64,000 bases of DNA from Kofleriaceae bacterium (GCA_020633495.1 JACKDR010000001.1:182105-246104); one strand, 5' to 3'. Positions 2,322 to 39,616 are shown, counted from the stretch's first letter. A program made the numbers and translations. Notes: generated by a model not told the origin, from the sequence alone.

Positions 2322-5291
2322 CTAGTCGTGGACCGCCCAGGTCGCGAGCGTCCCGGTGTCGCCGTACGCGTCGGTGTCGACGATGCACAGCGTCCAGGCG
2401 CCGGTGGCCGAGCCCGACAGGCCCGACACCGCGCGGCTGGTCAGGCTGAACGAGCCGGCGTTGCTCGGGAAGGTGCCGGTCGGGAAGGCCTCGACCGTGA
2501 CGCCGCCGTGGCTCAGCGTGCCGCGGAGGATCGAGCGCCAGGCGTGGGTGCCGGCGAGGTCGAGCTTGACGTCGGCGGCGTTGCCGTCACCGGCCACGTT
2601 CAGCGTCGTGCAGGCCTGGCCGTTGTCGACCAGGGCGAGGTTCGGCGACGCCGACCCGGACCAGCCGCCGGGTGGCGGCACCTGACAATCGCCGGAGATG
2701 GCCAGCGACCACGAGTTGAGCGTGCCGACGTCCTGCCCGGCGCGGTCGGAGACCTTGAGCTGCCAGACGCCCGCGGCGGCCTGGCCGTTGAACGCGCTGA
2801 CCAGGCTGTTGGTCAGGATGATGTTGTCCGCCGAGCCGCCCGACCGGTTCGACACCGTGTACGAGGTGCCGCTCGGCGACACCAGCGTGACGACGAGATC
2901 GCCGCGCCAGGTGTGGGTGATGTCGAGCGACAGCTCCAGGGCGCCGACGTTGCCGGTGCCGCTGACCGTGATCCGCGAGGTGATGCCGGTCGAGTTGTTG
3001 TCGGGGATGCCGATCGGCGTGTCGGTCGAGGCGAAGACGCCGTCGAGGCAGCCCACCGAGTTCGACACCGAGATCATCCGGCTGGCGACCGCGCTGGCGG
3101 CGCCCAGGTTGTCGACCGCGGTGGCCTTGACCAGGTAGCCGGCGCCGTCGGCGACGGTCGCGCTGTTCCAGGTGGTGCTGTACGGCGCGGTGGTGTCGTC
3201 GACGGTGGTGCCGTCGGGCAGCTGGAACGTGACCTTGGCGACGGAGCCGTCGCTGTCGGCCGCGGTCGCGGTGACCGTCACCGAGCCGGTGACCGTGGCG
3301 CCGTCCGCCGGGGCGGTCAGCTGCACGGTGGGCGCCTGGTTGGTGGTGCCGCCGGTGGTCCAGTTGGCGTGGAAGCCGGTGCCGGTGACCGACGCGTCGC
3401 TGGCGAACTTGACGACCAGCTTGGTCGAGGTCGCCGCCGCCGGCGCCGTGGTGCCCGCGGTCTTGGACAGCTGGGTGCCGTTGGCGTCGCTGATCGTGAC
3501 GAAGTCGTAGCCCGCCTCGGTGTTGAAGGCGTCGAAGGTCAGCGTCGCGGGCTGGCCGTTCGACGGCTGGATGCACCAGGTGTGGGTGTAGTTGTTGCCG
3601 TACGCGTTGGGGTAGTTCGGCGACTGGATCGAGCCGGACGCGCCGGTGAGGGTCTCGTCGCAGGTCGGGGTCGGGTCGGGCGGCGGCTGCGAGCTGCCGC
3701 AGGTGACGCCGACGTCGGCCCACGACTGGGTCAGCGCCGCGATCTCGGTGGCCGAGTAGCCCATCGCGCCGGCGGCGTCGACGACGCCCTGGCACGCCGC
3801 GGTCCAGCCGGTGCTGGTCGTCCAGTAGCTGGCGTTGGCCTCGTAGAAGGCGGCGCCGGCGCGCTTGACGCTGTCGGCGGTGGCGGCGCCGGTCGGGCTG
3901 CCGCTGCCGAGGCGCTTGGCCGACAGGCAGAACGCCTTGTTCATGACGCCGCTGGAGTAGTGGACGTCGAGGCCGTTGGTGTAGTTGGCGGCGTTGTCGA
4001 TCGACGCGCCGTCGGCGGTCGGGTTGCACATGTAGCGCAGCGCGCCGCTGCCCTTGAAGATGTCGCGGCCGAGGTCGAAGTCGGCGGTGTTACCCTCGGT
4101 GTAGAACTCGACCATCGTGCCGGCGATGTCGGAGAACGACTCGTTGAGGCCGCCCGGGATGCCGGAGTAGTTGAGGTTGGAGTGGAACGAGGTGAAGCCG
4201 TGGTTGATCTCGTGGCCGACCACGTCCGGATCGCCGGACAGCGGGTAGAAGTACGAGGCGCCGTCGCCGTACGTCATCTGGGTGCCGTCCCAGAACGCGT
4301 TCTCGTAGCTGTTGCTGTAGTGGACGCGGCTGACGATCTTGAAGCCGTTGTCGTCGATCGAGTTGTGGCCGACCCACTCCTGCATCATCCGCACGGTCTT
4401 CTCGGCGAAGCCGTGGGCGTCGTTGATCGCGGCGTCGCCGATGTTGGACAGCGAGCCGGTGACCGTGGTCCCCGTGCCCGAGGTCCCGTGGTTCATGTTG
4501 GTGGTGCGGTACTGGGTCGTGTTCATCGCGTACGAGCTGCCGGACGCCTCGACGTCGAGCTCGTTGGTCCAGGTCCGCGACACCTTGGCGTTGCCGCCCG
4601 GGCCCGACGCCTGCGACAGCGTGTGGATGCCGTTGTAGCTGTCGAGGATGTCGCCGGTCTTGGCGTCGATGAAGTAGTTCCACAGGCCCGGGGTCAGGCC
4701 GCCCTGGAGCTCGGTGAAGAAGACCGCGTGCCAGGCCAGGCGCGCGTCGCGCCCTTCCATGGGGAAGATCACCAGCTCGGTCGACTCGCGATCGTAGGCG
4801 AGCACGGCCGAGGTGTCCTTGGCGCCGCTGGCGTAGGCCTGCTGGGCCACCGCCAGGGCGTCGGCCCCGCCCAGCGTGGGCGTGGTGTCGAAGCCGTCGA
4901 GGTTGGCGACCAGCGTGCCGTTGACCGCCTTGAAGGTGTCGTCGCTGGCGTGCAGGACCAGGTCGCCGCCCCACACCTTGACGCCGTCGTGCAGCTGCTC
5001 GAGGCGGACGTGGTTGAGGCCGTCGGCGCCGCGACCGGCGGCGCGCACGTGCCAGTCGTCCTCCGCCGACAACGTCAGCTCGGGCGTGTTGCGCACGTAG
5101 TCGAGCGCCGCGGTGTCGAGCACGCCGACCAGCGGCGTCGACACCTTGTCCGTGAACCGGACAGTTTCGACCGTGGGGGGAGCCGACGAGGTGCCGTCTG
5201 GGGCGTCGTGGCCGAGGGCGCAGCCCGCCAGGGCCGCCATGGAAATGTACGGGACAGCCGCCGCAGCTGCCCTCAGGGTTCGCTTCACCAT
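2322..5291 (-). CDS. Secreted thermolysin-like M4 zinc metalloprotease with a CUB domain, Ig-like region and two proprotein-convertase P-domains
   Basis: The HExxH motif (VVGHEINHG) and downstream NESFSDIAG glutamate match thermolysin. A CUB-like segment (CDETLTGASGSIQSPNYPNAYGNNYTHTWCIQP) and P-domain signatures (ITHTWRGDLVVTLVSPSGT; LAGTHAWRSIL) follow. The start is placed at the internal ATG 5291, which has an AGGAGG RBS and a signal peptide (MVKRTLRAAAAAVPYISMAALAGCA); the track ORF extends to 5354. Confidence 0.9.
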   Translation of the reverse strand: MVKRTLRAAAAAVPYISMAALAGCALGHDAPDGTSSAPPTVETVRFTDKVSTPLVGVLDTAALDYVRNTPELTLSAEDDWHVRAAGRGADGLNHVRLEQLHDGVKVWGGDLVLHASDDTFKAVNGTLVANLDGFDTTPTLGGADALAVAQQAYASGAKDTSAVLAYDRESTELVIFPMEGRDARLAWHAVFFTELQGGLTPGLWNYFIDAKTGDILDSYNGIHTLSQASGPGGNAKVSRTWTNELDVEASGSSYAMNTTQYRTTNMNHGTSGTGTTVTGSLSNIGDAAINDAHGFAEKTVRMMQEWVGHNSIDDNGFKIVSRVHYSNSYENAFWDGTQMTYGDGASYFYPLSGDPDVVGHEINHGFTSFHSNLNYSGIPGGLNESFSDIAGTMVEFYTEGNTADFDLGRDIFKGSGALRYMCNPTADGASIDNAANYTNGLDVHYSSGVMNKAFCLSAKRLGSGSPTGAATADSVKRAGAAFYEANASYWTTSTGWTAACQGVVDAAGAMGYSATEIAALTQSWADVGVTCGSSQPPPDPTPTCDETLTGASGSIQSPNYPNAYGNNYTHTWCIQPSNGQPATLTFDAFNTEAGYDFVTISDANGTQLSKTAGTTAPAAATSTKLVVKFASDASVTGTGFHANWTTGGTTNQAPTVQLTAPADGATVTGSVTVTATAADSDGSVAKVTFQLPDGTTVDDTTAPYSTTWNSATVADGAGYLVKATAVDNLGAASAVASRMISVSNSVGCLDGVFASTDTPIGIPDNNSTGITSRITVSGTGNVGALELSLDITHTWRGDLVVTLVSPSGTSYTVSNRSGGSADNIILTNSLVSAFNGQAAAGVWQLKVSDRAGQDVGTLNSWSLAISGDCQVPPPGGWSGSASPNLALVDNGQACTTLNVAGDGNAADVKLDLAGTHAWRSILRGTLSHGGVTVEAFPTGTFPSNAGSFSLTSRAVSGLSGSATGAWTLCIVDTDAYGDTGTLATWAVHD

Positions 5292-7083: not shown

Positions 7084-8147
<1,064 letters not shown>

Positions 8148-27591: not shown

Positions 27592-27780
27592 CGCTCACCT
27601 CGAGCGTTCGACCGACGGCCGTCGGAGATTTGCCGCAAGACGAACCGGGTCAGGTCGCCTGGTCGACATGGTTCGCTCACCTCGAGCGCTCGACCGACGG
27701 CCGTCGGAGATTTGCGGCAAGACGAACCGGGTCAGGTCGCCTGGTCGACGTGGTTCGCTCACCTCGAGCGGAGCCCGAGC
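27592..27780. repeat. 82-bp tandem repeat, two full copies plus a partial third, each with nested palindromes
   Basis: Copies start at 27592, 27674 and 27756 and are >95% identical. Each unit contains the perfect palindrome CCGACGGCCGTCGG, the TTGC-N-GCAA palindrome and terminal GTCGACC/GGTCGAC complementarity. It lies in a convergent intergenic region. Confidence 0.85.
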
Positions 27781-29906: not shown

Positions 29907-31040
29907 TCAGATGAGCAGCGGGCGGCCGCCGACGAACAGCGTGTCCTGCTCGGCGGCGGCGCCGTCGGACAGCTCGACCTCGACCATCTGGCCGCGCAGC
30001 ATCTTCTCCCGGTGCGGGTGCTTGAAGCTGACCTCGCCGGGCAGCACCTCGAGGACCTTGCCGACCCGGTGGCAGATGATCATCTCGAGCTTGCACGCGT
30101 ACAGCGGCGTGCCGGCCTTGACGTTGTGGAGGTTGCCGTAGGGGACGAACGCGACGCTGGCGCCGTCGTCGATCGCGCGCAGCCACGGCGACTGGCGCAG
30201 GCCGTCGAGGATCGCGTCCTGGCGGGCCAGCCCGGCCTGCAGCGCCTTGCGGTTCTCGATCGCCTTGGCGGTCTCGAGCCGCTGCAGCGCGTACTCCTGC
30301 TTGATCTTGAGGACGTCGTACGACAGCGCGCCGTCGCCGCCCTTCTCGGTCAGGATCGCGTCGAGCGCGTTGGCCTCGGCCTCGAGGTCGGCGGCGCGGG
30401 TCTCGTACTCGGCCTGACGCTCGGCCAGCGACAGGTTCGAGGTCGTGATCTGCGCGACCTGGTACTTGCCCGACAGCATCTCGCTGCGGTCGATCAGCCC
30501 GGCCGCGTACTCCTGGGCCATGCGCTTCTTCGACGCGTTGGCGAACGCGGCGTTGTTGCGCTCGACCTTGCGCCGGGCGCTGCCGTACTGATGGGCGAGG
30601 CTGCGGGCCCGGTCGAGGGCGTTGCGGCGGCCCTCGAGGTCGGCGCGGATCGCGGCGGCGAACTCGGCCTGGTAGTCCTGCTGGACCGCGATATAGCGAT
30701 CGGCGTGGGCCAGCTCCGCGGCCATGCGATCGCGGACGTTCTCCTGCTCGGCGACCTGGGCCTGCAGCGCCAGCACCCGCTCGTCGCTCGCCGACACCGC
30801 CATCGGCTGGATCCAGCTGTCGCTGACGAAGTAGAAGACGCTGGTCGCGATGTAGCCGATCAGCACGACGACGATGATCGTCAGCACCGCGAAGCCCAGG
30901 GCCCGGTAGGTGTTGACCAGCATCTTCTGGGTCTGCTGCGGATCCGCGGCGGGGCGGCCGAGGCCGAGGTCCTCGAAGACCTTCCAGCGCTCGGCGTCGC
31001 TGACCCGCGGCGGCGGCGCCGCGACCATCGGCGGCGCCAT
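29907..31040 (-). CDS. Membrane-anchored coiled-coil protein, HlyD/membrane-fusion-like topology (start uncertain)
   Basis: A Pro/Ala-rich N-terminus is followed by a single TM (FAVLTIIVVVLIGYIATSVFYFV), a long coiled coil and a C-terminal beta domain. The true start may lie further upstream because two frames are open up to ~31500. Confidence 0.5.
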   Translation of the reverse strand: MAPPMVAAPPPRVSDAERWKVFEDLGLGRPAADPQQTQKMLVNTYRALGFAVLTIIVVVLIGYIATSVFYFVSDSWIQPMAVSASDERVLALQAQVAEQENVRDRMAAELAHADRYIAVQQDYQAEFAAAIRADLEGRRNALDRARSLAHQYGSARRKVERNNAAFANASKKRMAQEYAAGLIDRSEMLSGKYQVAQITTSNLSLAERQAEYETRAADLEAEANALDAILTEKGGDGALSYDVLKIKQEYALQRLETAKAIENRKALQAGLARQDAILDGLRQSPWLRAIDDGASVAFVPYGNLHNVKAGTPLYACKLEMIICHRVGKVLEVLPGEVSFKHPHREKMLRGQMVEVELSDGAAAEQDTLFVGGRPLLI

Positions 31041-31751
31041 CACCGGCGCCGAGCCGGCGGCCAGCGCGGTGTGCGGCACCGCGGTCTCGATCGTGTCCGC
31101 CGGCGGCGGCACCGGCGCGGTCGCCGGCGAGAACGCGGCCGGCCAGGCGGCGACGCGATCGACGAGGGTCGGATCGGCGCCGAACGGCGACGGCCCGGCG
31201 GCGGGCGGCCGCGCCGGCTGCGGCGCCGCGGCCAGCGCGGTGTTGCCGGCGGCGACGAAGCGCCGCCGCCGCGCGGCTCGGGCACGGGACGCTTGAACGG
31301 GATGACGTTGGTGGTGTCGGCGCGCGCCGGCGGGGTGGCGCGCACCAGGGCGGCCAGGCCGCCGCCGCCGATCGGGCGCGACGCGCGCGGCGCCTCCGGC
31401 ACCGGCCGCGACGCGCGCGGCGCCGGCAGTGAGGCGCGCGGCGGCAGCGCGCGGGACGCGCCGCGGGCAGCGGCGGCCGCGCGCTGCCCGGCGGACGCAG
31501 GGAGGCACGGGGAGAGGCGGCGGGACGGGGTGGAGCGGCGCGCGACTTGGGTTCGGACACGTCGTCCTCGAGGCGAGGGGGTGAGCGGCGGAGTCACGGA
31601 GTTTTGCAAGAAGGCCGCCACGGCCGGTTCACCGCTATGTCCGCGTCCTGGCGCACGAACCAAGGCTCCCATGAAGGGTCGCGCCCCCACGTGTGGGACT
31701 CCGTCCCCCGGCCGCACCGCGTCGTGATGGCGCTGACTCGACGGATCTTCG

Positions 31752-33023
31752 ATGTCCACGACCGTCGTGGCGCACGGCACCGCTCTTGCTGAGGTTCCGT
31801 CGAACCAGCAGATGTCCGCCTTCCCCATCTACCTCTTCATCTTCATCGTCTTCCTGAACCGCTACGTGTTCGGGCTCTACCTGTCGCTGGTCCGCGGCAA
31901 GAAGTTCGACCAGAAGATCGAGGGGTACGAGCCGACGATCGGCGTGGTCGTGCCGCTCTACAACGAGGGCAAGTCGATCTACGACACGATCGTCAGCCTG
32001 GTGAAGCTCGAGTACCCGGCCGACAAGCTGACGATCACCGTGGTCGACGACTGCTCGACCGACGACAGCTACCAGTGGGCGCAGAAGGCGGCCGACGAGT
32101 TCCCCAACGTCACGGTGCTGCGCAACCCGTACAACATGGGCAAGCGCAAGGGCATCAACCACGCCGTGCGCCAGAGCACGGCCGAGATCATCGTCTCGGT
32201 CGACTCCGACGTCATCGTCTACCCGTCGGCGCTGCGCGAGCTGGTCGCGCGCTTCACCGGGCCCGAGGTCGCCGCGGTCGGCGGTCGCATCCACGTCTCC
32301 AACCCCAACGACAACTGGCTGACCAAGCTGCAGACGATCAAGTACTACTTCGGCCAGGAGCACCTCAAGAACCTGGAACGGTCGCTGCGCTCGGTGATGT
32401 GCCTGTCGGGGTGCCTGACCGCGTACCGCCGCCACGTCCTGATCGAGCTCGAGCCCGTCCTCGAGAACCGCAACCTGCTCGGCGTGCCCATCAAGTACGG
32501 CGAGGACCGGTTCCTGACCCGGCAGATCGTCAAGCGCGGCTACCGCACGGTCATGACGATGGACGCGATGTGCTTCACCAAGGCGCCGACCCAGCTCAAG
32601 GCGTACTTCAACCAGCAGCTGCGCTGGAAGCGCTCCAACATCGTCGACTTCATCGGCGGCATCGGCCACGCCTGGCGCCTGCACCCGCTCTTGTGCGTGC
32701 AGTACCTGTCGATGCTGATGCTGCTGTTCATCTACCCGTTCGTGATCATCAGCCACGTCCTCGACGGCTCGTTCTTCGACCTGGCGGTCTTCCACCTCGC
32801 GGTGATCGCGGCGTTCAGCCTGGTCTACTACTTCTCGCCGTCGACCCGTCGCCTGCCGCCGTGGCTGCGCGTCCACCCCGCCGCGTTCCTGCCGATGGCG
32901 GTGCTGATGCCGGTGGCCTACCTGACCCTGACCCCGCTGGGCATGTTCACCCTCGACACGTCGAGCTGGGAGACCCGCGGCCACGTCGCCGGCGTCGCGC
33001 CCGGCCCCGGAGCCGCGCCGTGA
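31752..33023 (+). CDS. Family 2 glycosyltransferase, processive synthase type (NodC/HasA/PgaC-like)
   Basis: The GT-A motifs DDCSTDDS and DSD and the QQLRWKRS (QxxRW) motif are present, flanked by N- and C-terminal TM helices. Confidence 0.85.
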   Translation: MSTTVVAHGTALAEVPSNQQMSAFPIYLFIFIVFLNRYVFGLYLSLVRGKKFDQKIEGYEPTIGVVVPLYNEGKSIYDTIVSLVKLEYPADKLTITVVDDCSTDDSYQWAQKAADEFPNVTVLRNPYNMGKRKGINHAVRQSTAEIIVSVDSDVIVYPSALRELVARFTGPEVAAVGGRIHVSNPNDNWLTKLQTIKYYFGQEHLKNLERSLRSVMCLSGCLTAYRRHVLIELEPVLENRNLLGVPIKYGEDRFLTRQIVKRGYRTVMTMDAMCFTKAPTQLKAYFNQQLRWKRSNIVDFIGGIGHAWRLHPLLCVQYLSMLMLLFIYPFVIISHVLDGSFFDLAVFHLAVIAAFSLVYYFSPSTRRLPPWLRVHPAAFLPMAVLMPVAYLTLTPLGMFTLDTSSWETRGHVAGVAPGPGAAP

Positions 33024-33763
33024 TCGTCGCCGCCCATCAGCCGTCGTACCTGCCCTGGCTGGGCTACCTCGACAAGATGCTGGCGGCCGACGTCTTTGTC
33101 GTGATGGACGACCTCCAGTACGAGGCCCAGAACTTCCAGAACCGCAACCGGCTCAAGCTCAACCAGGGCGCCGCGTGGGTCACGGTCCCGCTCGAGCGCG
33201 GCACCCAGCGCGATCGCATCCTCGACAAGCGCATCCACAACGGCGGCAACCCCAAGGAGCACTGGCAGCGCCGCACCTGGCTGACGATCAAGACCCACTA
33301 CGGCAAGGCCGCGCACTTCGATCGCTACGCGCCCGAGCTCGAGGAGCTGTTCACCCGGCGCTGGGACCGCCTCGTCGATCTCGACCAGCACGTCCTGACC
33401 CTGGCGCGGCGCTGGCTCGGTATCACCAAGCCGATCCTGCACGCGTCGTCGCTCGGCCTGGTCGGCGACAAGACCGACCGCATCATCGACCTGTGCCGCA
33501 AGGTCGGCGCCCGGGTCTACCTGTCGGGCAGCGGCGGCTCGACCGGCTACCTCGACGTCGACGCCCTGCACCGCGCCGGCATCAGCGTGCGCTGGCAGCG
33601 CTTCGATCACCCGGTCTACCCGCAGCGCTACCCGGCGCAGGGCTTCGTCCCCAACCTCGCGTTCCTCGATCTGATCCTCAACTGCGGCGCCGCAAGCGCC
33701 GCGATCCTGCGCGGTGGCGACCTGCAAAGTCGCGACCTGCCGCGGGCGGAGGCGATGCCGTGA
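33020..33763 (+). CDS. WbqC-like family protein
   Basis: It matches the WbqC-like N-terminal consensus (HQPSYLPWLGYLDKMLAADVFVVMDDLQYEAQNFQNRNRL). The GTG overlaps the GT2 stop (GTGA). Confidence 0.75.
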   Translation: MIVAAHQPSYLPWLGYLDKMLAADVFVVMDDLQYEAQNFQNRNRLKLNQGAAWVTVPLERGTQRDRILDKRIHNGGNPKEHWQRRTWLTIKTHYGKAAHFDRYAPELEELFTRRWDRLVDLDQHVLTLARRWLGITKPILHASSLGLVGDKTDRIIDLCRKVGARVYLSGSGGSTGYLDVDALHRAGISVRWQRFDHPVYPQRYPAQGFVPNLAFLDLILNCGAASAAILRGGDLQSRDLPRAEAMP

Positions 33764-34392
33764 ACCGCATCTTCGACGAAGAGAAGGGCGGCCGCGTGCT
33801 CGCCTTCGGCGCCCACCCCGACGATCTCGAGGTCGGCGCCGGGGGCCTCTTGGCGCGCCTGTCGAACGAGGGCGCCGACGTCACGATGTGCGTGGTGTCG
33901 ATCCCCAACCGCGGCGACGAGCGCGCCGCCGAGGCCCGCGCCGGCGCCGAGGTCATCGGCGCCGACCTGTTCATCCTCTACGAGGGCAAGCCGTGCCGGG
34001 TCGAGGACATCCCGATGCACGAGCTGGTCGGTCGCTTCGACCAGCTGGTCGGCGACCTCCGACCCGACCTGGTGATCACCCACTCGGGCCACGACCTGCA
34101 CTGGGACCACGGCCTGGTCAACCGCGCCACGGTGTCGGCGCTGCGCCGGACCCCGTGCGATCTGCTGTCGTTCCTGTCGAGCCCGGAGATGAACGCGCAG
34201 TCGCGCTCGTACGGCCAGTGCTTCGCCGACATCTCGACGACGATGGACACCAAGCTGGCCGCGATCTCGGCGCACAAGTCGCAGCTGCCCAAGCTCGACC
34301 TCGAGTCGAGCCGCGACCTGGCCCGCGCCATGGGCCGCATCAGCGGCGTCGCCTACGCCGAGGCCTACGAGGTCCTGCGCGTCCGGATCTGA
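33760..34392 (+). CDS. PIG-L/LmbE-family N-acetylglucosaminyl deacetylase
   Basis: It has an AHPDDLEVGAGG zinc-binding motif and HSGHDLHWDHG. The GTG overlaps the previous stop (GTGA). Confidence 0.85.
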   Translation: MNRIFDEEKGGRVLAFGAHPDDLEVGAGGLLARLSNEGADVTMCVVSIPNRGDERAAEARAGAEVIGADLFILYEGKPCRVEDIPMHELVGRFDQLVGDLRPDLVITHSGHDLHWDHGLVNRATVSALRRTPCDLLSFLSSPEMNAQSRSYGQCFADISTTMDTKLAAISAHKSQLPKLDLESSRDLARAMGRISGVAYAEAYEVLRVRI

Positions 34393-34615
34393 TCCCGTGC
34401 GCGTGCCCGTGCCCGTGCCCGATCCGGACTCTGGTTCTGTTCTGATCCCGTGCCCGTGCCCGATCCGGACTCTGGTTCTGTTCTGATCCCGTGCCCGTGC
34501 CCGTGCCCGTGCCCGTGCCCGATCCGGACTCTGGTTCTGTTCTGATCCCGTGCCCGTGCCCGTGCCCGTGCCTGTGCCCGTGCCCGTGCCCGTGCCCGTG
34601 CCCGATCCGGCTCCC
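34388..34615. repeat. Minisatellite array of four variable-length units, each ending in (CCCGTG)n
   Basis: Direct reading. Units share the core GATCCGGACTCTGGTTCTGTTCTGATCCCGTGCCC and carry 2-9 CCCGTG hexamers each. The array is intergenic between the deacetylase and the DMT transporter. Confidence 0.9.
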
Positions 34616-34685
34616 GCTTCCGGTCCACCTCCGCCCTCCCCTTCCCCGGTGACCTCCTGCCCGCCGCGGTGTATCGTCCGCGCCC

Positions 34686-35564
34686 TTGCCGTCCCCCGGT
34701 GAACTGGCCGCGCTCGGTACCGCCGGTGCCTGGACCTGCTCGTCGCTGGCGTTCGCCGCCGCTGCCGAGCGCATCGGCTCGCTGTCGCTCAACCTGATCC
34801 GGATCGGCATCGCGCTGATCTGGCTGACGGTGATCGCCACGATCACCCGCGGCCTGCCGCTGCCCACCGACGCCAGCGCTCACACCTGGCTGTACCTGAC
34901 CCTGTCGGGCGCGGTCGGGTTCGTCCTCGGCGACCTGTGCTTCTTCCGCGCGCTGATCGAGATCGGGCCGCGGCTGACCATGCTGATCCAGACCACGACG
35001 CCGATCTTCGCGGCGGCGATCAGCTGGGTCGCGCTGGGCGAGGGGCTGTCGCCGCGCGGCCTGATCGGCCTGGTCCTCGTCGTCGCCGGCGTCGCCTGGG
35101 CGGTGAGCGCGCGACGCGGCACCACCACGATGCGCCGCCCCGGCCGCGGCGTGCTGCTCGCGCTGGGCGGTGCCCTCGGCCAGGCCGGCGGCCTGATCCT
35201 CACCAAGCATGGCCTCGGCGACTACCCGCCGATCGCCGGCAACCAGATCCGCGCCCTGGCCGCGCTGGTCGGCTTCGCGATCGTCCTGACCGCGTCGCGG
35301 TGGTGGCCCCACTTCCGCCGCGGCGTCCGCGACGGCCGCGCCATGGCCTTCGCCGCCACCGGCGCGACCCTGGGCCCGTTCATCGGCGTGACGCTGTCGC
35401 TGTACGCGGTGTCGCACGCCAAGGCCGGCGTCGCCGCCGCGCTGATGTCGACGCCGCCGGTGATGATCCTGCCCTACGTGTGGTGGCGCGGCGAGCAGGT
35501 CGGCGCCGCCGGCGTCCTCGGCGCTCTGACCGCGGTCGCCGGCGTCGCGCTGCTGGTCACGTGA
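34686..35564 (+). CDS. EamA/DMT-family transporter
   Basis: Ten predicted TM helices and two EamA-like halves are present. The start codon is uncertain; the track begins at a TTG. Confidence 0.7.
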   Translation: MPSPGELAALGTAGAWTCSSLAFAAAAERIGSLSLNLIRIGIALIWLTVIATITRGLPLPTDASAHTWLYLTLSGAVGFVLGDLCFFRALIEIGPRLTMLIQTTTPIFAAAISWVALGEGLSPRGLIGLVLVVAGVAWAVSARRGTTTMRRPGRGVLLALGGALGQAGGLILTKHGLGDYPPIAGNQIRALAALVGFAIVLTASRWWPHFRRGVRDGRAMAFAATGATLGPFIGVTLSLYAVSHAKAGVAAALMSTPPVMILPYVWWRGEQVGAAGVLGALTAVAGVALLVT

Positions 35565-35576
35565 CCGCGCGCCGGC

Positions 35577-36488
35577 TCAAGGCCAGCGGACGCCGGTGAG
35601 GTCCTCGGACAGCGCCCACAGCCGGGCGGCCCGGGCGTCGTCGCGGGCCGCGCGCGACGGCGTCGCGACCTTGCAGCGCACGAAGTACTGGCCGGTGACG
35701 TCGGCGACCTCGGGCGCCGACGCCAGGTAGATCGACGTGCGCGCCCCCTTCGCGGGGGTGAGCAGGACCCGCTTGCCGATCCGCATGCCGACCCGGTACA
35801 GCCACGAGCCGTCGCGCCCGAACCCCGACGCGATCGCGCCCGGGTGCAGCGCGTTGGAGGTGACGCCGGTGCCGGCGAGCCGCCGCGCCGCCTCGCGGGC
35901 GAACCACAGGTTGCACAGCTTGGACGCGCCGTACGCGAACGACTCGCGGTAGCCGCGCTCGCCGTACGGCAGGTCGTCCCAGGTGAAGCGGGCGAACCGG
36001 TGGCCCAGCGACGACACCGTGATCAGCCGCGCCGGCGCCGACGCCACCAGCAGGTCGCGCAGCTCCGCCGACAGCAGGAACGCCGCCAGGTGGTTGACCG
36101 CGAACGTGCGCTCGAAGCCGTCGACGGTCAGCTCGCGGCGATCGTTGATCGCGCCGGCGTTGTTGAGCAGGACGTCGAGGCGGTCGAAGCGGTCGCGGAC
36201 CTCGGCGGCGGCGCGCCGGACCTCGGCGAGCGACGCCAGGTCGGCGACCACCCGCTCGAGCCTCGCCGCGGGCGCGGTGGCGAGGATCGACGCCGCCGCG
36301 GCGTCGGCGCGGGCCGGATCGCGCACCAGCATGACGACGCGGGCGCCGCGCGCCGCCAGCGCGCGCGCCGCCTCGAGGCCGATGCCCGAGCTGGCGCCGG
36401 TGACGAGGACGGTGCGGCCGTCCATCGTCGGGGGCGTGGGCGTCGTCGGGGCGTCGTCGGGCTCGGCCATGGCGGCGCACCGTAGCAC
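35577..36488 (-). CDS. Short-chain dehydrogenase/reductase (SDR), retinol-dehydrogenase-like
   Basis: The TGASSGIG cofactor motif and a YGASK catalytic motif are present. Confidence 0.85.
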   Translation of the reverse strand: MLRCAAMAEPDDAPTTPTPPTMDGRTVLVTGASSGIGLEAARALAARGARVVMLVRDPARADAAAASILATAPAARLERVVADLASLAEVRRAAAEVRDRFDRLDVLLNNAGAINDRRELTVDGFERTFAVNHLAAFLLSAELRDLLVASAPARLITVSSLGHRFARFTWDDLPYGERGYRESFAYGASKLCNLWFAREAARRLAGTGVTSNALHPGAIASGFGRDGSWLYRVGMRIGKRVLLTPAKGARTSIYLASAPEVADVTGQYFVRCKVATPSRAARDDARAARLWALSEDLTGVRWP

Positions 36489-36505
36489 GCGCTAGGCTCG
36501 GCCCG

Positions 36506-37597
36506 ATGACACCACGTCGAGGGCTCGCGGTGCTGCTGGGGATGATCGGGCTCGCCGGGTGCGGCGGCGCCGCGCCGCCGCCGCCCGCGGGCGTCGCGCG
36601 CCCCACCGCCGTCGATCTGTCGCACCCGACGCTGACCCTCGAGTACCTGGTGTGGTCGGGCGGCGTCGACGGCGACACCGTGTGGCTCGACGCCGACGGC
36701 CACGAGCGCGGCCGCGCCCACGGCGCCTGGGTGTCGCGCGGCGGTCGGCTGTGGCAGCTGCGGCTGCGGCAGGAGCGCTACCCGGCGTCGCCGTGTAACG
36801 CCGGCCCGACCGGCGCGCCGACGCCGCCCGGCGAGATCGTCGTCGACGTGCTCGAGCTGGTGGCACCGCCGGTCCCGGCCGCGGACACCCGGGGCGCCGG
36901 CCGTGGCGGCGGCGGCTACGGCGGCGATGGCTACGGCGGCGATGGCTATGGCCTCGAGGACGACGAGTACGACGGCTACGACGGCTACGACGGCTACGAC
37001 GGCTATGACGGCTACGGCAACGGCGAGGCCGTGCGCCAGCTGTCGTCGGGCGGCTACGGCGGCGGCCCCGGCGCGGTCCACACCGTGACGCTCCGCGGCC
37101 AGCTCGGCCGCTTCGTGTTCCTCGACGAGCGCACCGCCGGCACCGGCTGCGACGGCGTCACCCGCGCCGAGGTCACCGCGCACGCCTACGACCTGTCGAC
37201 CAGCAACTGGCTCGAGCCGCTGGTCCGCGACGACGACGAGGCGGCGCTGATCCGCACCGCGACGCCGCAGCTCGCCCGCCTCGCCGCCACCACCACCGCG
37301 CCCGACGCCTGGATCGCCGAGGCCCGGCCGCGCTGGCGCGACGGCGGGTTCGGCGTCGACGCGCTGGTGGTCGCCGCGTGCCCGGCCTGCGCCGCCGGCG
37401 AGTGGTCGTCGGGCACCGCGGCGATCTGGCTCGAGGCGCCCGCGGCGCCGCCGGCGATCGAGGAGGAGGCCGAGCTGCCCGAGCCGGTGCGCGCGTGGCT
37501 GTCGCGCGCCGCCGGGCCCACCGGCGTCAGCAGCGGCCTGCCGGATCGGAGCTGGTCGCGGCTGCTCGGCGGCGGCGGCGGCGACGTCGCGCGCTGA
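36506..37597 (+). CDS. Lipoprotein with a Gly/Tyr/Asp repeat region (GYGGD x2, DGY x5)
   Basis: It has a lipoprotein signal (LLGMIGLAGC). The repeats are encoded by 9-bp and 15-bp tandem DNA repeats at 36905-37020. Confidence 0.65.
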   Translation: MTPRRGLAVLLGMIGLAGCGGAAPPPPAGVARPTAVDLSHPTLTLEYLVWSGGVDGDTVWLDADGHERGRAHGAWVSRGGRLWQLRLRQERYPASPCNAGPTGAPTPPGEIVVDVLELVAPPVPAADTRGAGRGGGGYGGDGYGGDGYGLEDDEYDGYDGYDGYDGYDGYGNGEAVRQLSSGGYGGGPGAVHTVTLRGQLGRFVFLDERTAGTGCDGVTRAEVTAHAYDLSTSNWLEPLVRDDDEAALIRTATPQLARLAATTTAPDAWIAEARPRWRDGGFGVDALVVAACPACAAGEWSSGTAAIWLEAPAAPPAIEEEAELPEPVRAWLSRAAGPTGVSSGLPDRSWSRLLGGGGGDVAR

Positions 37598-37613
37598 GCG
37601 TGAGTCGCGCGGG

Positions 37614-37785
37614 AGCGGATCAAGAGACAGAGCCCGGATCGGGCACGGGCACGGGCACGGGCACGGGCACGGGCACGGGCACGGGCACGGGCACGGGCAC
37701 GGGCACGGGCACGGGCACGGGCACGGGCATGGGCATGGGCACGGATCAGAACCAGAGCGGATCGGGCGCGAGCACGGGCGGGCCT
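37614..37785. repeat. (GGGCAC)n array of about 17 hexamers; inverted copy of the 34388-34615 minisatellite
   Basis: The reverse complement shares GATCCG..CTCTGGTTCTG..GATCCGTGCCC with the left array. Its G-rich strand is (GGGNNN)n, a textbook G-quadruplex motif. Confidence 0.9.
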
Positions 37786-37798
37786 GGTACGATGGGGC

Positions 37799-39616
37799 AT
37801 GGGCGCCGACCCGGTCCCGGGGGACGTGACCGCCGCGGTGGCGTCGCCCACCTCGCGCTCGGGCGTCCGCGCGGCCTACCGCCGGGTCGTGCACGGCGTC
37901 ACCCTCGCCGACGACGCCGAGGTGGTCTACGAGCGCGAGCGCATGGCGCTCAACCGCCGCAACATCCGCGTCGTCACGCTCGCGACGCTGGCGCTCCACG
38001 CGATCTCGGTGGTGGTCTACGCGCGGCAGGCGGCCGACTGGACCGACGTGCCGCGCAGCTTCCACGCCACCGTCGCGTGGGTCCACCTGCTCGCGCTGCC
38101 GCTGGTCACGACCCTGGCGGCGCTGGTGTCGTGGGTCGAGCCGCGGCGGTGGCCGCCCGGCTGGCGGGCCTGGGCCACCGACCTGTACGCCTTCGCGTAC
38201 CTGATGATCGGCGCCGCGCTGTCGATCAACGCGCAGCGCCTCAACGGCAACGTCAACGTCTACACGATCGCCTCGCTGGCCGGCGCGATCGCGCTGCGCC
38301 AGCGCACCACCGCGGTCATCCTCGGCCAGGCCGCCGGCGTCACCGCGATGGTGATCGGCGTGCTGCAGGTGCAGCACGCGACCCCGCTGCGCATGGCGGC
38401 GCTGGCGCCGGTGCTGGCGGTCGCGGTGTTGACCATCGTCCTGGCCCGCGCGTCGGTGGCCGCGATGCGCGCCGAGATCGCCGCGCGCCTGACCATCGAG
38501 CGCCAGCGCGCCGAGCTGGCGACCAACCACGACGCGCTCGAGCGCCTCAACGGCGACCTCGAGCGCCGCGTCCAGGCCCAGGTCGCCGAGATCGTCGCCC
38601 GCGCCGGCGAGATCGATCGCCTCAACCACCACCTGCGGACCCAGGTCATCGACCGCTCGCGCCAGCTCGCCCACGCGCTCAAGGCGCTGGGCAAGGGCGA
38701 GGCCCTGCCCCTGGCGCCCGGCGTCACCCTCGACGGCCGCGTCGAGATCCGCGAGCAGATCGGCGTCGGCGCGATGGGCGAGGTCTACCGCGGCGCCGAC
38801 CGCATCCTCGCCCGCGACGTCGCGGTCAAGGTGCTACGCGCGGACAGCGGGGTGTCGACCGATCTGTGGGTGCGGTTCGCCGCCGAGGCCGAGGCCGCCG
38901 CCGCGATCCACCACCCCGCGGTGGTGCCGACGCTGCACGTCGGCATCGCCGACGACGGCCGCCTCTACCAGCTGCAGGAGCTCGCCGATGGCGTGCCCCT
39001 GAGCCGGCTGCTCGAGGACGGCGGACCGTGGGCGCCGGGCGCCGCGGCGCGGGTCGGCGCCGGCCTGGCCGAGGCGCTGGCCGCGGCCCACGCCGCCGGC
39101 ATCGTCCACCGCGACGTCAAGCCCGGCAACGTCATGGTCGGGACCACGGCGCCGGCGGTGCGCCTGCTCGATTTCGGCGTGTCCAAGGTGCTCGGCAGCG
39201 ACGCCGACGCCGGCATCGTCGTCGGCACGCCGGCGTACATGGCGCCGGAGCAGATGACCGCGTCGACCGCGGTCGACGCCGCCGCCGACGTCTACGCCAC
39301 CGGCGTCGTGCTCCACGAGCTGATCGCCGGGACCCGACCGTTCGTCGGCGGCACCGCGACGCTGCTCGATCCCGCCGGCCGCGCCGCGCCGCCGCGGCTG
39401 TCGGCGCAGGAGGCGCCGCCGGCGCTGGCCGCGCTGATCCAGCGCTGCCTGGCGCCGGACCCCGCGCGCGCGGCCGACCGCGGCCGCGCTGGCCGCCGAG
39501 CTGACCGCGATCGCCGACGCCGCCGGCGCGCCGCCGCCCACGCCCTGCCGCGGCCACGATCGGCGACGCGCGACGGCAGCGGCGCCACGGTGCGGCTGCG
39601 CGCGCCCGACGCGTGA
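37799..39616 (+). CDS. Membrane-anchored Ser/Thr protein kinase (N-terminal polytopic domain, coiled coil, C-terminal kinase)
   Basis: The Hanks kinase motifs HRDVKPGN, DFG and GTPAYMAPE are present, with 5-6 predicted TM helices N-terminal. The last ~45 aa are Arg-rich, and an alternative +1 frame reads protein-like, so a C-terminal frameshift is possible. Confidence 0.75.
   Translation: MGADPVPGDVTAAVASPTSRSGVRAAYRRVVHGVTLADDAEVVYERERMALNRRNIRVVTLATLALHAISVVVYARQAADWTDVPRSFHATVAWVHLLALPLVTTLAALVSWVEPRRWPPGWRAWATDLYAFAYLMIGAALSINAQRLNGNVNVYTIASLAGAIALRQRTTAVILGQAAGVTAMVIGVLQVQHATPLRMAALAPVLAVAVLTIVLARASVAAMRAEIAARLTIERQRAELATNHDALERLNGDLERRVQAQVAEIVARAGEIDRLNHHLRTQVIDRSRQLAHALKALGKGEALPLAPGVTLDGRVEIREQIGVGAMGEVYRGADRILARDVAVKVLRADSGVSTDLWVRFAAEAEAAAAIHHPAVVPTLHVGIADDGRLYQLQELADGVPLSRLLEDGGPWAPGAAARVGAGLAEALAAAHAAGIVHRDVKPGNVMVGTTAPAVRLLDFGVSKVLGSDADAGIVVGTPAYMAPEQMTASTAVDAAADVYATGVVLHELIAGTRPFVGGTATLLDPAGRAAPPRLSAQEAPPALAALIQRCLAPDPARAADRGRAGRRADRDRRRRRRAAAHALPRPRSATRDGSGATVRLRAPDA

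Follow-up and report, generated by a model that had tools for sequence, protein, structure and literature searches.

We analysed a window of 64,000 nucleotides (by which we mean this whole stretch of DNA) from a Kofleriaceae bacterium (Myxococcota; GCA_020633495.1, JACKDR010000001.1:182105-246104), a metagenome-assembled genome (MAG) whose sequence here is 74% G+C, and we describe a pair of related (GGGCAC)n repeat arrays which lie in inverted orientation on either side of a 3-kb segment. The left array (34384-34617) begins at the 3' end of a PIG-L/LmbE-family deacetylase gene (33760-34392, plus strand; Pfam PF02585; also called in contig L123 of a second assembly), the last member of a lower-GC GT2-WbqC-PIG-L group. 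Exactly three genes, in mixed orientation, lie between the arrays. The first encodes an EamA/DMT transporter (34686-35564, plus strand; Pfam PF00892; identical gene calls in L123-L126) and starts 71 nt past the left array. The second encodes an SDR oxidoreductase (35577-36425, minus strand; Pfam PF00106; 282 aa in the NCBI annotation), whose product is 100% identical to NCBI proteins, P0001 among them, of three MAGs labelled Kofleriaceae or Myxococcales. The third encodes a lipoprotein (36506-37597, plus strand) with the lipobox LAGC and an inserted Gly/Tyr/Asp repeat, which belongs to a small family of about 300 aa lacking a Pfam model. Pfam, the gene calls and the lipobox thus agree with the original prediction, made from the sequence before this analysis, that a DMT transporter, an SDR and a Gly/Tyr/Asp-repeat lipoprotein make up the whole bracketed content. 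The right array (37609-37783) fills the gap from the lipoprotein stop codon (37595-37597) up to the ATG of a membrane-anchored Ser/Thr protein kinase gene (37799-39616, plus strand; Pfam PF00069; P0133 and P0134), which stands 15 nt past the decayed end of the array. Both arrays are noncoding tracts placed upstream of a gene start, that of EamA on one side and that of the kinase on the other.

Architecture and kinship of the two arrays

The left array consists of four (CCCGTG)n blocks which alternate with three identical 28-nt cores bounded by GATC. The core GATCCGGACTCTGGTTCTGTTCTGATCC, also written ATCAGAACAGAACCAGAGTCCGGATC, has exact matches at 34421, 34462 and 34521 (three matches vs none in 100 shuffles), and blocks 1 to 4 contain 4, 2, 5 and about 9.5 hexamer units, with CGCGTG and CCTGTG as variant units. 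Along the window, a truncated core CCGGATCTGATCC and block 1 (CCCGTG CGCGTG CCCGTG CCCGTG CCC), which is polymorphic, occupy 34384-34420. The PIG-L stop codon (TGA, 34390-34392) lies within this truncated copy of the core, the last one when the array is read on the minus strand. The stretch 34421-34548 holds the three full cores (34421-34448, 34462-34489 and 34521-34548) together with the 2-unit block (34447-34461) and the 5-unit block (34488-34520), as given by exact matches, Tandem Repeats Finder (TRF) and decomposition of the sequence. Block 4, (CCCGTG)4 CCTGTG (CCCGTG)4 CCC, extends over 34547-34603, and an inner flank GATCCGGCTCCCGC (GCGGGAGCCGGATC on the minus strand) closes the array at 34604-34617. 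All of these parts are assigned to the minus strand, on which the array reads GCGGGAGCCGGATC-(GGGCAC)5 AGGCAC (GGGCAC)3-GGGATCAGAACAGAACCAGAGTCCGGATC-(GGGCAC)5-core-(GGGCAC)2-core-(GGGCAC)3 GCGCAC-GGGATCAGATCCGG. TRF reported periods of 41 and 59 nt with 98-100% matches.

The right array is simpler and reads, on the plus strand, GCGGGAGC-GGATCAAGAGACAGAGCCCGGATC-(GGGCAC)14 (GGGCAT)2 GGGCAC-GGATCAGAACCAGAGCGGATC-GGGCGC GAGCAC GGGCGG GC. Its inner flank GCGGGAGC and a diverged core GGATCAAGAGACAGAGCCCGGATC (37617-37640) occupy 37609-37640, a single tract of 17 units follows at 37641-37742, and a shortened core GGATCAGAACCAGAGCGGATC (37743-37763) leads into the decayed hexamers GGGCGC GAGCAC GGGCGG GC, which end at 37783; TRF gave a period of 6, 17.5 copies and 97% matches. 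The claim of two related arrays in opposite orientation, the left with four variable units, was borne out by the sequence, by TRF and by the shuffles. For the right array, the predicted count of about 17 hexamers was correct, but the predicted identity of its core was not, as one copy has diverged and the other is shortened; both are homologous to the left core in reverse complement, with small indels such as the loss of one AGAAC.

Besides the hexamer, the two arrays have in common the core and the inner flank GCGGGAGC(C)GGATC. This shared non-hexamer sequence indicates that the arrays are paralogues in inverted orientation and not two independent microsatellites, and because the inner flank is present in both, the inverted homology reaches past the hexamers. 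The inverted arms measure 52 nt at 98% complementarity and 92 nt at 83%. The G-rich strand is the minus strand in the left array and the plus strand in the right, so that both are directed outward, and the junction CCGGATC|GGGCAC is found at all five blocks of the window. When (GGGCAC)3 was searched with up to two mismatches, the 30 matches in the window all fell within the two arrays, compared with 0.1 expected from shuffles. The short units thus stand head to tail far above chance, as in a simple sequence repeat (SSR), and elsewhere in the window there was nothing similar to the arrays.

Other explanations of the arrays by kind were rejected. They are not a coding repeat, since the core puts 29 nt between hexamer blocks, a step that is not a multiple of three and breaks the frame, and gene calls on independent contigs place both arrays in intergenic DNA. 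They are not an array of clustered regularly interspaced short palindromic repeats (CRISPR) either, as the "spacers" between the 28-nt cores are one hexamer repeated 2 to 9.5 times and no cas-like domain occurs among the neighbours scanned. A known RNA family was likewise dismissed, as no Rfam family reached its gathering score anywhere in the window (the only hit in the region of the arrays, to nrdJ, was weak and irrelevant at E = 0.48).

The repeat unit also gives the arrays a predicted capacity to fold. The sequence of (GGGCAC)n follows the textbook G3N3 pattern for quadruplexes, and the tracts conform to the usual definition of at least four G3 runs on one strand with loops of 1-7 nt. Four consecutive G3N3 units, counted with overlap, match 20 times in the window, always in the arrays, against 0.07 expected; in non-overlapping terms there are four tandem motifs on the plus strand of the right tract and two on the minus strand of left block 4, and 7 of the 14 canonical quadruplex motifs of the window lie inside the arrays. 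The variant units AGGCAC and GCGCAC interrupt the G-triplet. When quadruplexes were allowed in ViennaRNA, the predicted energy of the G-rich strands was 16-22 kcal/mol lower, with three to four tandem quadruplexes predicted in each array. Imperfect slipped hairpins are predicted for the tracts too.

Unit number, orientation and surroundings

The window was compared with GCA_020431345.1, an independent assembly of a nearly identical strain, over an overlap of 6.6 kb, so that two assemblies bear on what follows. One of its contigs (L122/L123, 4,904 nt) carries GT2-WbqC-PIG-L, the left array, EamA and SDR in this order, and another (L136, 1,670 nt) carries the 3' end of the lipoprotein gene, the right array and the kinase gene. 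The comparison gave four substitutions and two indels, and both indels lie within hexamer tracts between flanks that are 99.9-100% identical. Left block 1, beside the PIG-L stop codon, has 4 units in the window and 2 in the second assembly (-12 nt), and the right tract has 17 units in the window and 18 in the second assembly (+6 nt). The left difference is the more reliable one, because that block is only 24 nt long and carries a variant unit. Array length is thus unstable, or at least different between assemblies, and unit number varies between close genomes as in variable-number tandem repeats (VNTRs), as far as two assemblies can tell. This agrees with the earlier proposal that the hexamer tracts are substrates for slipped-strand mutation, since the only length differences in 6.6 kb are unit changes inside the arrays.

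The same contigs bear on whether the arrays could have arisen from mis-assembled repeats. Repeat unit counts are difficult to assemble, and indel errors are probable elsewhere in the source assembly of the window: kinase residues 557-578 (about 39467-39532) form an Arg-rich stretch of 22 residues which looks out of frame, whereas the protein P0122 of the sister MAG has ARPTAAALAAELTAIADAAGAP in this place and is identical to the window on both sides, a mismatch that is probably due to compensating indels through assembly errors in the window's source. However, in the contigs of the second assembly each array has the same structure and is continuous with unique sequence on either side, from which we conclude that this structure is not an artefact of assembly. 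Short-read Logan unitigs from three sequencing runs (SRR12358675/6 and SRR15882951) are 100% identical to the window and stop inside the tracts at the expected places, and one of them corresponds exactly to the inter-array segment. An origin of the arrays or of their arrangement in mis-assembly is therefore extremely improbable.

The original prediction had regarded the inverted pair as a substrate for inversion of the cassette, and for its excision or duplication. In such a case, recombination between the arrays, either homologous or by a dedicated enzyme, would flip the 3-kb segment, and two isomers that differ in their gene neighbourhoods would exist. The exchange is physically possible, as the inverted homology (the arms given above) exceeds the usual minimum for RecA, and quadruplex DNA can stimulate recombination by analogy with the pilE locus of Neisseria, where G-quadruplex-forming DNA has this effect. 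Nothing that was found at the locus supports inversion, excision or duplication. Both junctions have the same orientation in the second assembly (L122 and L136) as in the window, although consensus assemblies cannot reveal minor inversion isomers, and the composition of the segment resembles that of the right flank. By Pfam, no recombinase, resolvase, integrase, invertase or transposase domain was found in the 17 flanking open reading frames (ORFs) scanned, which cover most of 27-48 kb and include five ORFs without any match. In addition, what would be flipped is not a promoter but three complete genes of mixed orientation, so that a flip would follow no obvious switching logic. On these grounds we regard an invertible cassette as improbable, and the inverted arrangement appears fixed.

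The Pfam assignments of the genes around the bracketed segment are as follows. Upstream are YaeQ, two proteins without a Pfam match, GT2, WbqC and PIG-L, and downstream, beyond the kinase, are a metallo-beta-lactamase-fold protein, a glyoxalase, an ABC-F protein and three ORFs without a Pfam match. The G+C content of the bracketed segment is 75-81%, the same as in the right flank, and that of the GT2-WbqC-PIG-L block on the left is 62-72%; the left array stands at the right-hand edge of this lower-GC block. Three ENA metagenome contigs (L001-L003) match the GT2 gene and the first 150 or so codons of WbqC (31712-33470, 62-66% G+C) at 100% identity, and their flanks depart abruptly from the window, in L001 and L002 at 33470 and in L002 also at 31712; either a mosaic segment was exchanged here recently or the assembly is chimeric. 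The nearest orthologues of the SDR (63-72% identity) lie in a RuvCAB-kinase-SDR-cytochrome neighbourhood, which has no neighbours in common with the window. The plasmid, phage and viral collections gave only generic SDR and Gly-rich similarity to the window, and neither the core nor the GATC-anchored tract had a viral match, on which basis an origin from a plasmid, phage or mobile element of these collections was rejected.

An exhaustive search with the lipoprotein gave about 49 distant homologues of approximately 300 aa, which are without the Gly/Tyr/Asp repeat and align to its N- and C-terminal parts only. Relative to them, the repeat (residues 125-180 or so) is an insertion, encoded by DNA repeats of 9 and 15 nt (36905-37016). 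A word-indexed protein search returned none of these homologues, an artefact of the low-complexity repeat. Two further repetitive stretches lie to the left of the GT2 block, namely an 82-nt tandem duplication directly 3' of the yaeQ stop codon (27592-27770; 2.2 copies, 96% identical) and tandem repeats of 21-23 nt in DNA of 83% G+C (31000-31600), in the 5' part of a gene without a Pfam match (29907-31628, minus strand).

The (GGGCAC)n tract class in other genomes

To place the arrays in a wider context, one genome per species (185,579 species) was scanned for (GGGCAC)4, which gave at least 118 loci; the counts in this section are those among the loci listed. Myxococcota account for 53 of the 118, mostly as MAGs of Polyangia, and the remainder are mainly from Actinomycetota and Planctomycetota; several MAGs give three or four loci each. 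By a crude frame test, about 39 of 130 tracts are coding, in which case they encode His-Gly, Gly-Thr or Pro-Val repeats (L134, for example), and about 91 are noncoding. No tract among them is longer than 12 units, so the 17-18 units of the right array are unusually long, with the reservation that MAGs from short reads under-represent long tracts. None of the matches lies beside homologues of the genes in the window. The window's 28-nt core has no copy beyond the two arrays in the window, the 118 loci, the JGI metagenomes or the viral contigs. In the literature, we found no paper on the (GGGCAC)n hexamer tract or on such repeats in myxobacteria.

Two features recur among the noncoding tracts. 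First, 17 of 127 tracts have GATC directly before the 5' end of the G-rich strand, compared with 0.94 expected (P~1e-16), and in 46 of 127 the two bases before it are TC, with no enrichment of this type on the 3' side. We know of no mechanism that would place GATC in this position. Second, every 8-kb locus with two noncoding tracts has them in opposite orientation (10 of 10, P = 0.002). Their distance is mostly 10-222 nt, in which case they form the arms of short palindromic elements between genes. For example, at L030 (2995-3150) two convergent genes each end in a stop codon followed by GATC(GGGCAC)5, with a central hairpin and a T-run between them which resemble a bidirectional terminator, and palindromic intergenic elements of 30-300 nt with (GGGCAC)4-5 arms are also found at L038, L039, L079, L089, L028, L078, L109 and L121. 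A small hairpin, TAGGGAC..GTCCCTA (often as ...attcagggacaNNccctag), stands beside tracts in several Polyangiaceae MAGs (L012, L035, L039, L075, L079 and L100) and is absent from the window; it may be an element of the repetitive extragenic palindromic (REP) type.

Hexamer tracts behind a GATC are accordingly a class-wide intergenic feature of Polyangia, present in other high-GC bacteria as well, and inverted pairing is typical of the tract class. A generic dispersed repeat, without inverted pairing elsewhere and fixed in length and orientation, had been named as the outcome that would refute the original proposal. The hexamer is indeed dispersed and a single orientation was found, but pairing is the rule elsewhere and length is not fixed. 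As for inversion, it gains something from the fact that inverted tract pairs are common; most of those pairs, however, are so close together that they form hairpins, not invertible segments.

Composite arrays with cores are rare. At L135 and L019, blocks of GGGCAC are split by GATC-bounded cores of the type GGGATCGGGGAC(C/G)GAGA. The nearest parallel to the window is L101, from an unclassified MAG of 72% G+C, in which two inverted arrays (1-389 and 4042-4600) with four to five modules each stand 3.66 kb apart and flank two genes without a Pfam match. The module has a core of about 55 nt (GGCCTGCGGGCGT...GGCGCGGCTTC) and a variable GGTCAA/GGGCAA/GGGCAC tract, and a lone third copy occupies the next intergenic gap (7420-7493), which makes three sites in 8 kb. 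The polarity of L101 is opposite to that of the window, with the 3' ends of the G-strands facing inward.

This parallel is one of the points for viewing the locus as a foldback-like mobile cassette, in which the three genes would be cargo between tandem-array ends or would have been inserted into the loop of an older palindromic repeat. In L101, too, lineage-specific genes (3.7 kb) are enclosed by composite arrays in inverted orientation, the arrays of the window are true paralogues with common inner flanks, the SDR gene has a wholly different neighbourhood in more distant relatives, and the left array marks the border of the apparently exchanged lower-GC block. On the other hand, the L101 module is also found singly at its third site, as in a dispersed repeat of the REP kind and unlike the ends of a transposon. 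The flanking genes scanned include none with a transposase domain. Inspection of the outer ends, whose limits are fuzzy, revealed neither a target-site duplication nor a flanking direct repeat. The segment does not differ from the right flank in G+C, the collections of mobile DNA gave nothing beyond generic matches, and no copies came from metagenomes. We therefore hold a mobile cassette to be very improbable.

The tracts may instead act through their structure. In this interpretation, the arrays would be retained because transcription is modulated by G-quadruplexes, or else by i-motifs or long hairpins, at both ends of the block, and unit number would tune the expression of EamA and the kinase in the manner of a contingency locus. 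The concentration of canonical G3N3 motifs in the arrays, the position of the arrays directly upstream of two gene starts and the difference in unit number between assemblies are all consistent with it, and so are two observations from other Polyangia and other genomes, namely that tracts flank terminator-like hairpins between convergent genes and that variant hexamers (GGGATC, GGGGAC and GGGCAT) preserve the G-triplet. It is weakened by the units of the window which lose this triplet, by the lack of any promoter-like or convincing terminator-like site linked to the arrays, with no sigma-70-like promoter detected in 34200-38000, and by tract orientation relative to flanking genes, which across the 118 loci is not clearly biased (upstream 44 vs 31, downstream 43 vs 38, from a crude GC3-based gene call). 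With both G-rich strands directed outward, polymerases entering the block from either flank would meet quadruplex motifs on the template and those leaving it would not; we offer this only as an idea, and the reversed polarity of L101 means that it is not a general rule. Overall, a regulatory or boundary function of this kind is possible but doubtful.

Proposed origin, related systems and meaning

We consider it fairly probable that the arrays are hypermutable intergenic micro- and minisatellites without programmed inversion. Both would be copies of one intergenic module which, on the G-rich strand, reads GCGGGAGC(C)GGATC-(GGGCAC)n-GG(G)ATCAGAAC(AGAAC)CAGAG(TC)CGGATC-(hexamers), and the pair may have come from an old inverted duplication or from the spread of a repeat whose insertion or duplication tends to yield inverted copies. 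Hexamer units would be gained and lost by replication slippage, to which the differences in unit number between the assemblies point, possibly aided by the formation of hairpins or quadruplexes; the predicted quadruplex motifs and slipped hairpins are plausible drivers of the instability. Whole modules of core and tract would be duplicated by out-of-register exchange between tracts, as suggested by the three identical cores beside blocks of 2, 5 and 9.5 units. We do not think that the inverted layout is a programmed inversion switch; it would be a by-product of the way in which this repeat class spreads, in inverted copies. If the neighbouring EamA and kinase genes are affected at all, we would expect a graded side effect, and a regulatory, insulator or recombination role of the arrays would likewise be a matter of conjecture.

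Several observations weigh against this interpretation. Only two assemblies were compared, and the unit count of a perfect tract of 100 nt can be mis-assembled from short or long reads. The GATC anchoring and the 10 of 10 inverted pairs indicate a specific mechanism or selection beyond neutral slippage, the composite inverted arrays around 3.7 kb in a second genome (L101) suggest that the bracket is perhaps not accidental, and dispersal was seen for the hexamer tract across the class and not for the core of the window, for which 64 kb of the source genome were scanned. A bolder view would take these points together: GATC-anchored (GGGNNC)n tracts with quadruplex motifs would be an undescribed, Polyangia-wide repeat system that spreads as inverted copies, in which the composite form (the window and L101) brackets blocks of a few kilobases as a structural boundary or as a recombination-prone, foldback-like end, and the GATC junction marks a nick or cleavage step that seeds or moves tracts. 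We regard this as unlikely.

Among known systems, the arrays work like bacterial SSR or VNTR loci and have their defining features, and their likeness to contingency loci, mosaics of mycobacterial interspersed repetitive units (MIRUs) or bacterial interspersed mosaic elements (BIMEs), the pilE quadruplex, invertons and eukaryotic foldback elements is confined to single respects. With the contingency loci of Haemophilus, Neisseria and Campylobacter they share short tandem units by gene starts, whole-unit slippage and differences between near-identical genomes; in the window, however, the unit is a noncoding hexamer within a higher-order minisatellite, the host is a high-GC environmental myxobacterium, and a position between promoter hexamers or an on/off logic would be hypothetical. 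As in mycobacterial MIRU-VNTR loci and the BIME-2 (REP) elements of E. coli, tandem modules of 40-60 nt, variable in number and length, fill an intergenic gap from the upstream stop codon, and the repeat class occupies many intergenic sites, as is seen across Polyangia with the hexamer tract and within one contig with the module of L101. Unlike those elements, the modules of the window each hold their own variable microsatellite, and their core is non-palindromic and has no mini-ORF. The pilE quadruplex of Neisseria gonorrhoeae is also an intergenic G3-tract motif, a putative quadruplex, by a locus with proposed recombination, but it is a single 16-nt motif that needs the promoter of an adjacent small RNA and drives gene conversion from silent copies, whereas the window has eight tandem motifs in two inverted arrays and no donor cassettes.

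The likeness to invertons (Hin, Fim, Bacteroides-type promoters and shufflons) is limited to a DNA segment between inverted repeats. Known invertons rely on short recombinase sites of about 10-30 bp, usually accompanied by the gene of a serine or tyrosine recombinase, and what they flip is mostly a promoter or a gene end. The arms in the window are arrays of 170-230 nt around three whole genes, in one orientation and with no recombinase found among the flanking genes scanned. Eukaryotic foldback (FB-type) elements similarly have long terminal inverted arrays of variable short tandem repeats around a middle segment, but neither a transposase nor a target-site duplication was found in the window; the likeness is architectural only. 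Thus, those defining features of invertons, transposons and CRISPR arrays that were checked are not present in the arrays.

Taken alone, the locus matters little, being a hypermutable intergenic repeat by ordinary genes. The tracts nevertheless recur in the intergenic DNA of Polyangia and break short-read assemblies, which bears on the quality of MAGs. Because GATC anchoring and inverted pairs far above chance point to a specific generating mechanism or to selection, a systematic survey of the tracts is worthwhile. In a published survey, Myxococcus xanthus had a low predicted density of quadruplexes, and negative selection against quadruplex motifs in mesophilic bacteria was suggested (PMC8896161); in the lineage of this species with few such motifs, the two arrays hold half of the canonical motifs of 64 kb. 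If quadruplex formation or recombination should prove true, the arrays would be a natural system for the study of quadruplex-driven genome instability in high-GC bacteria.

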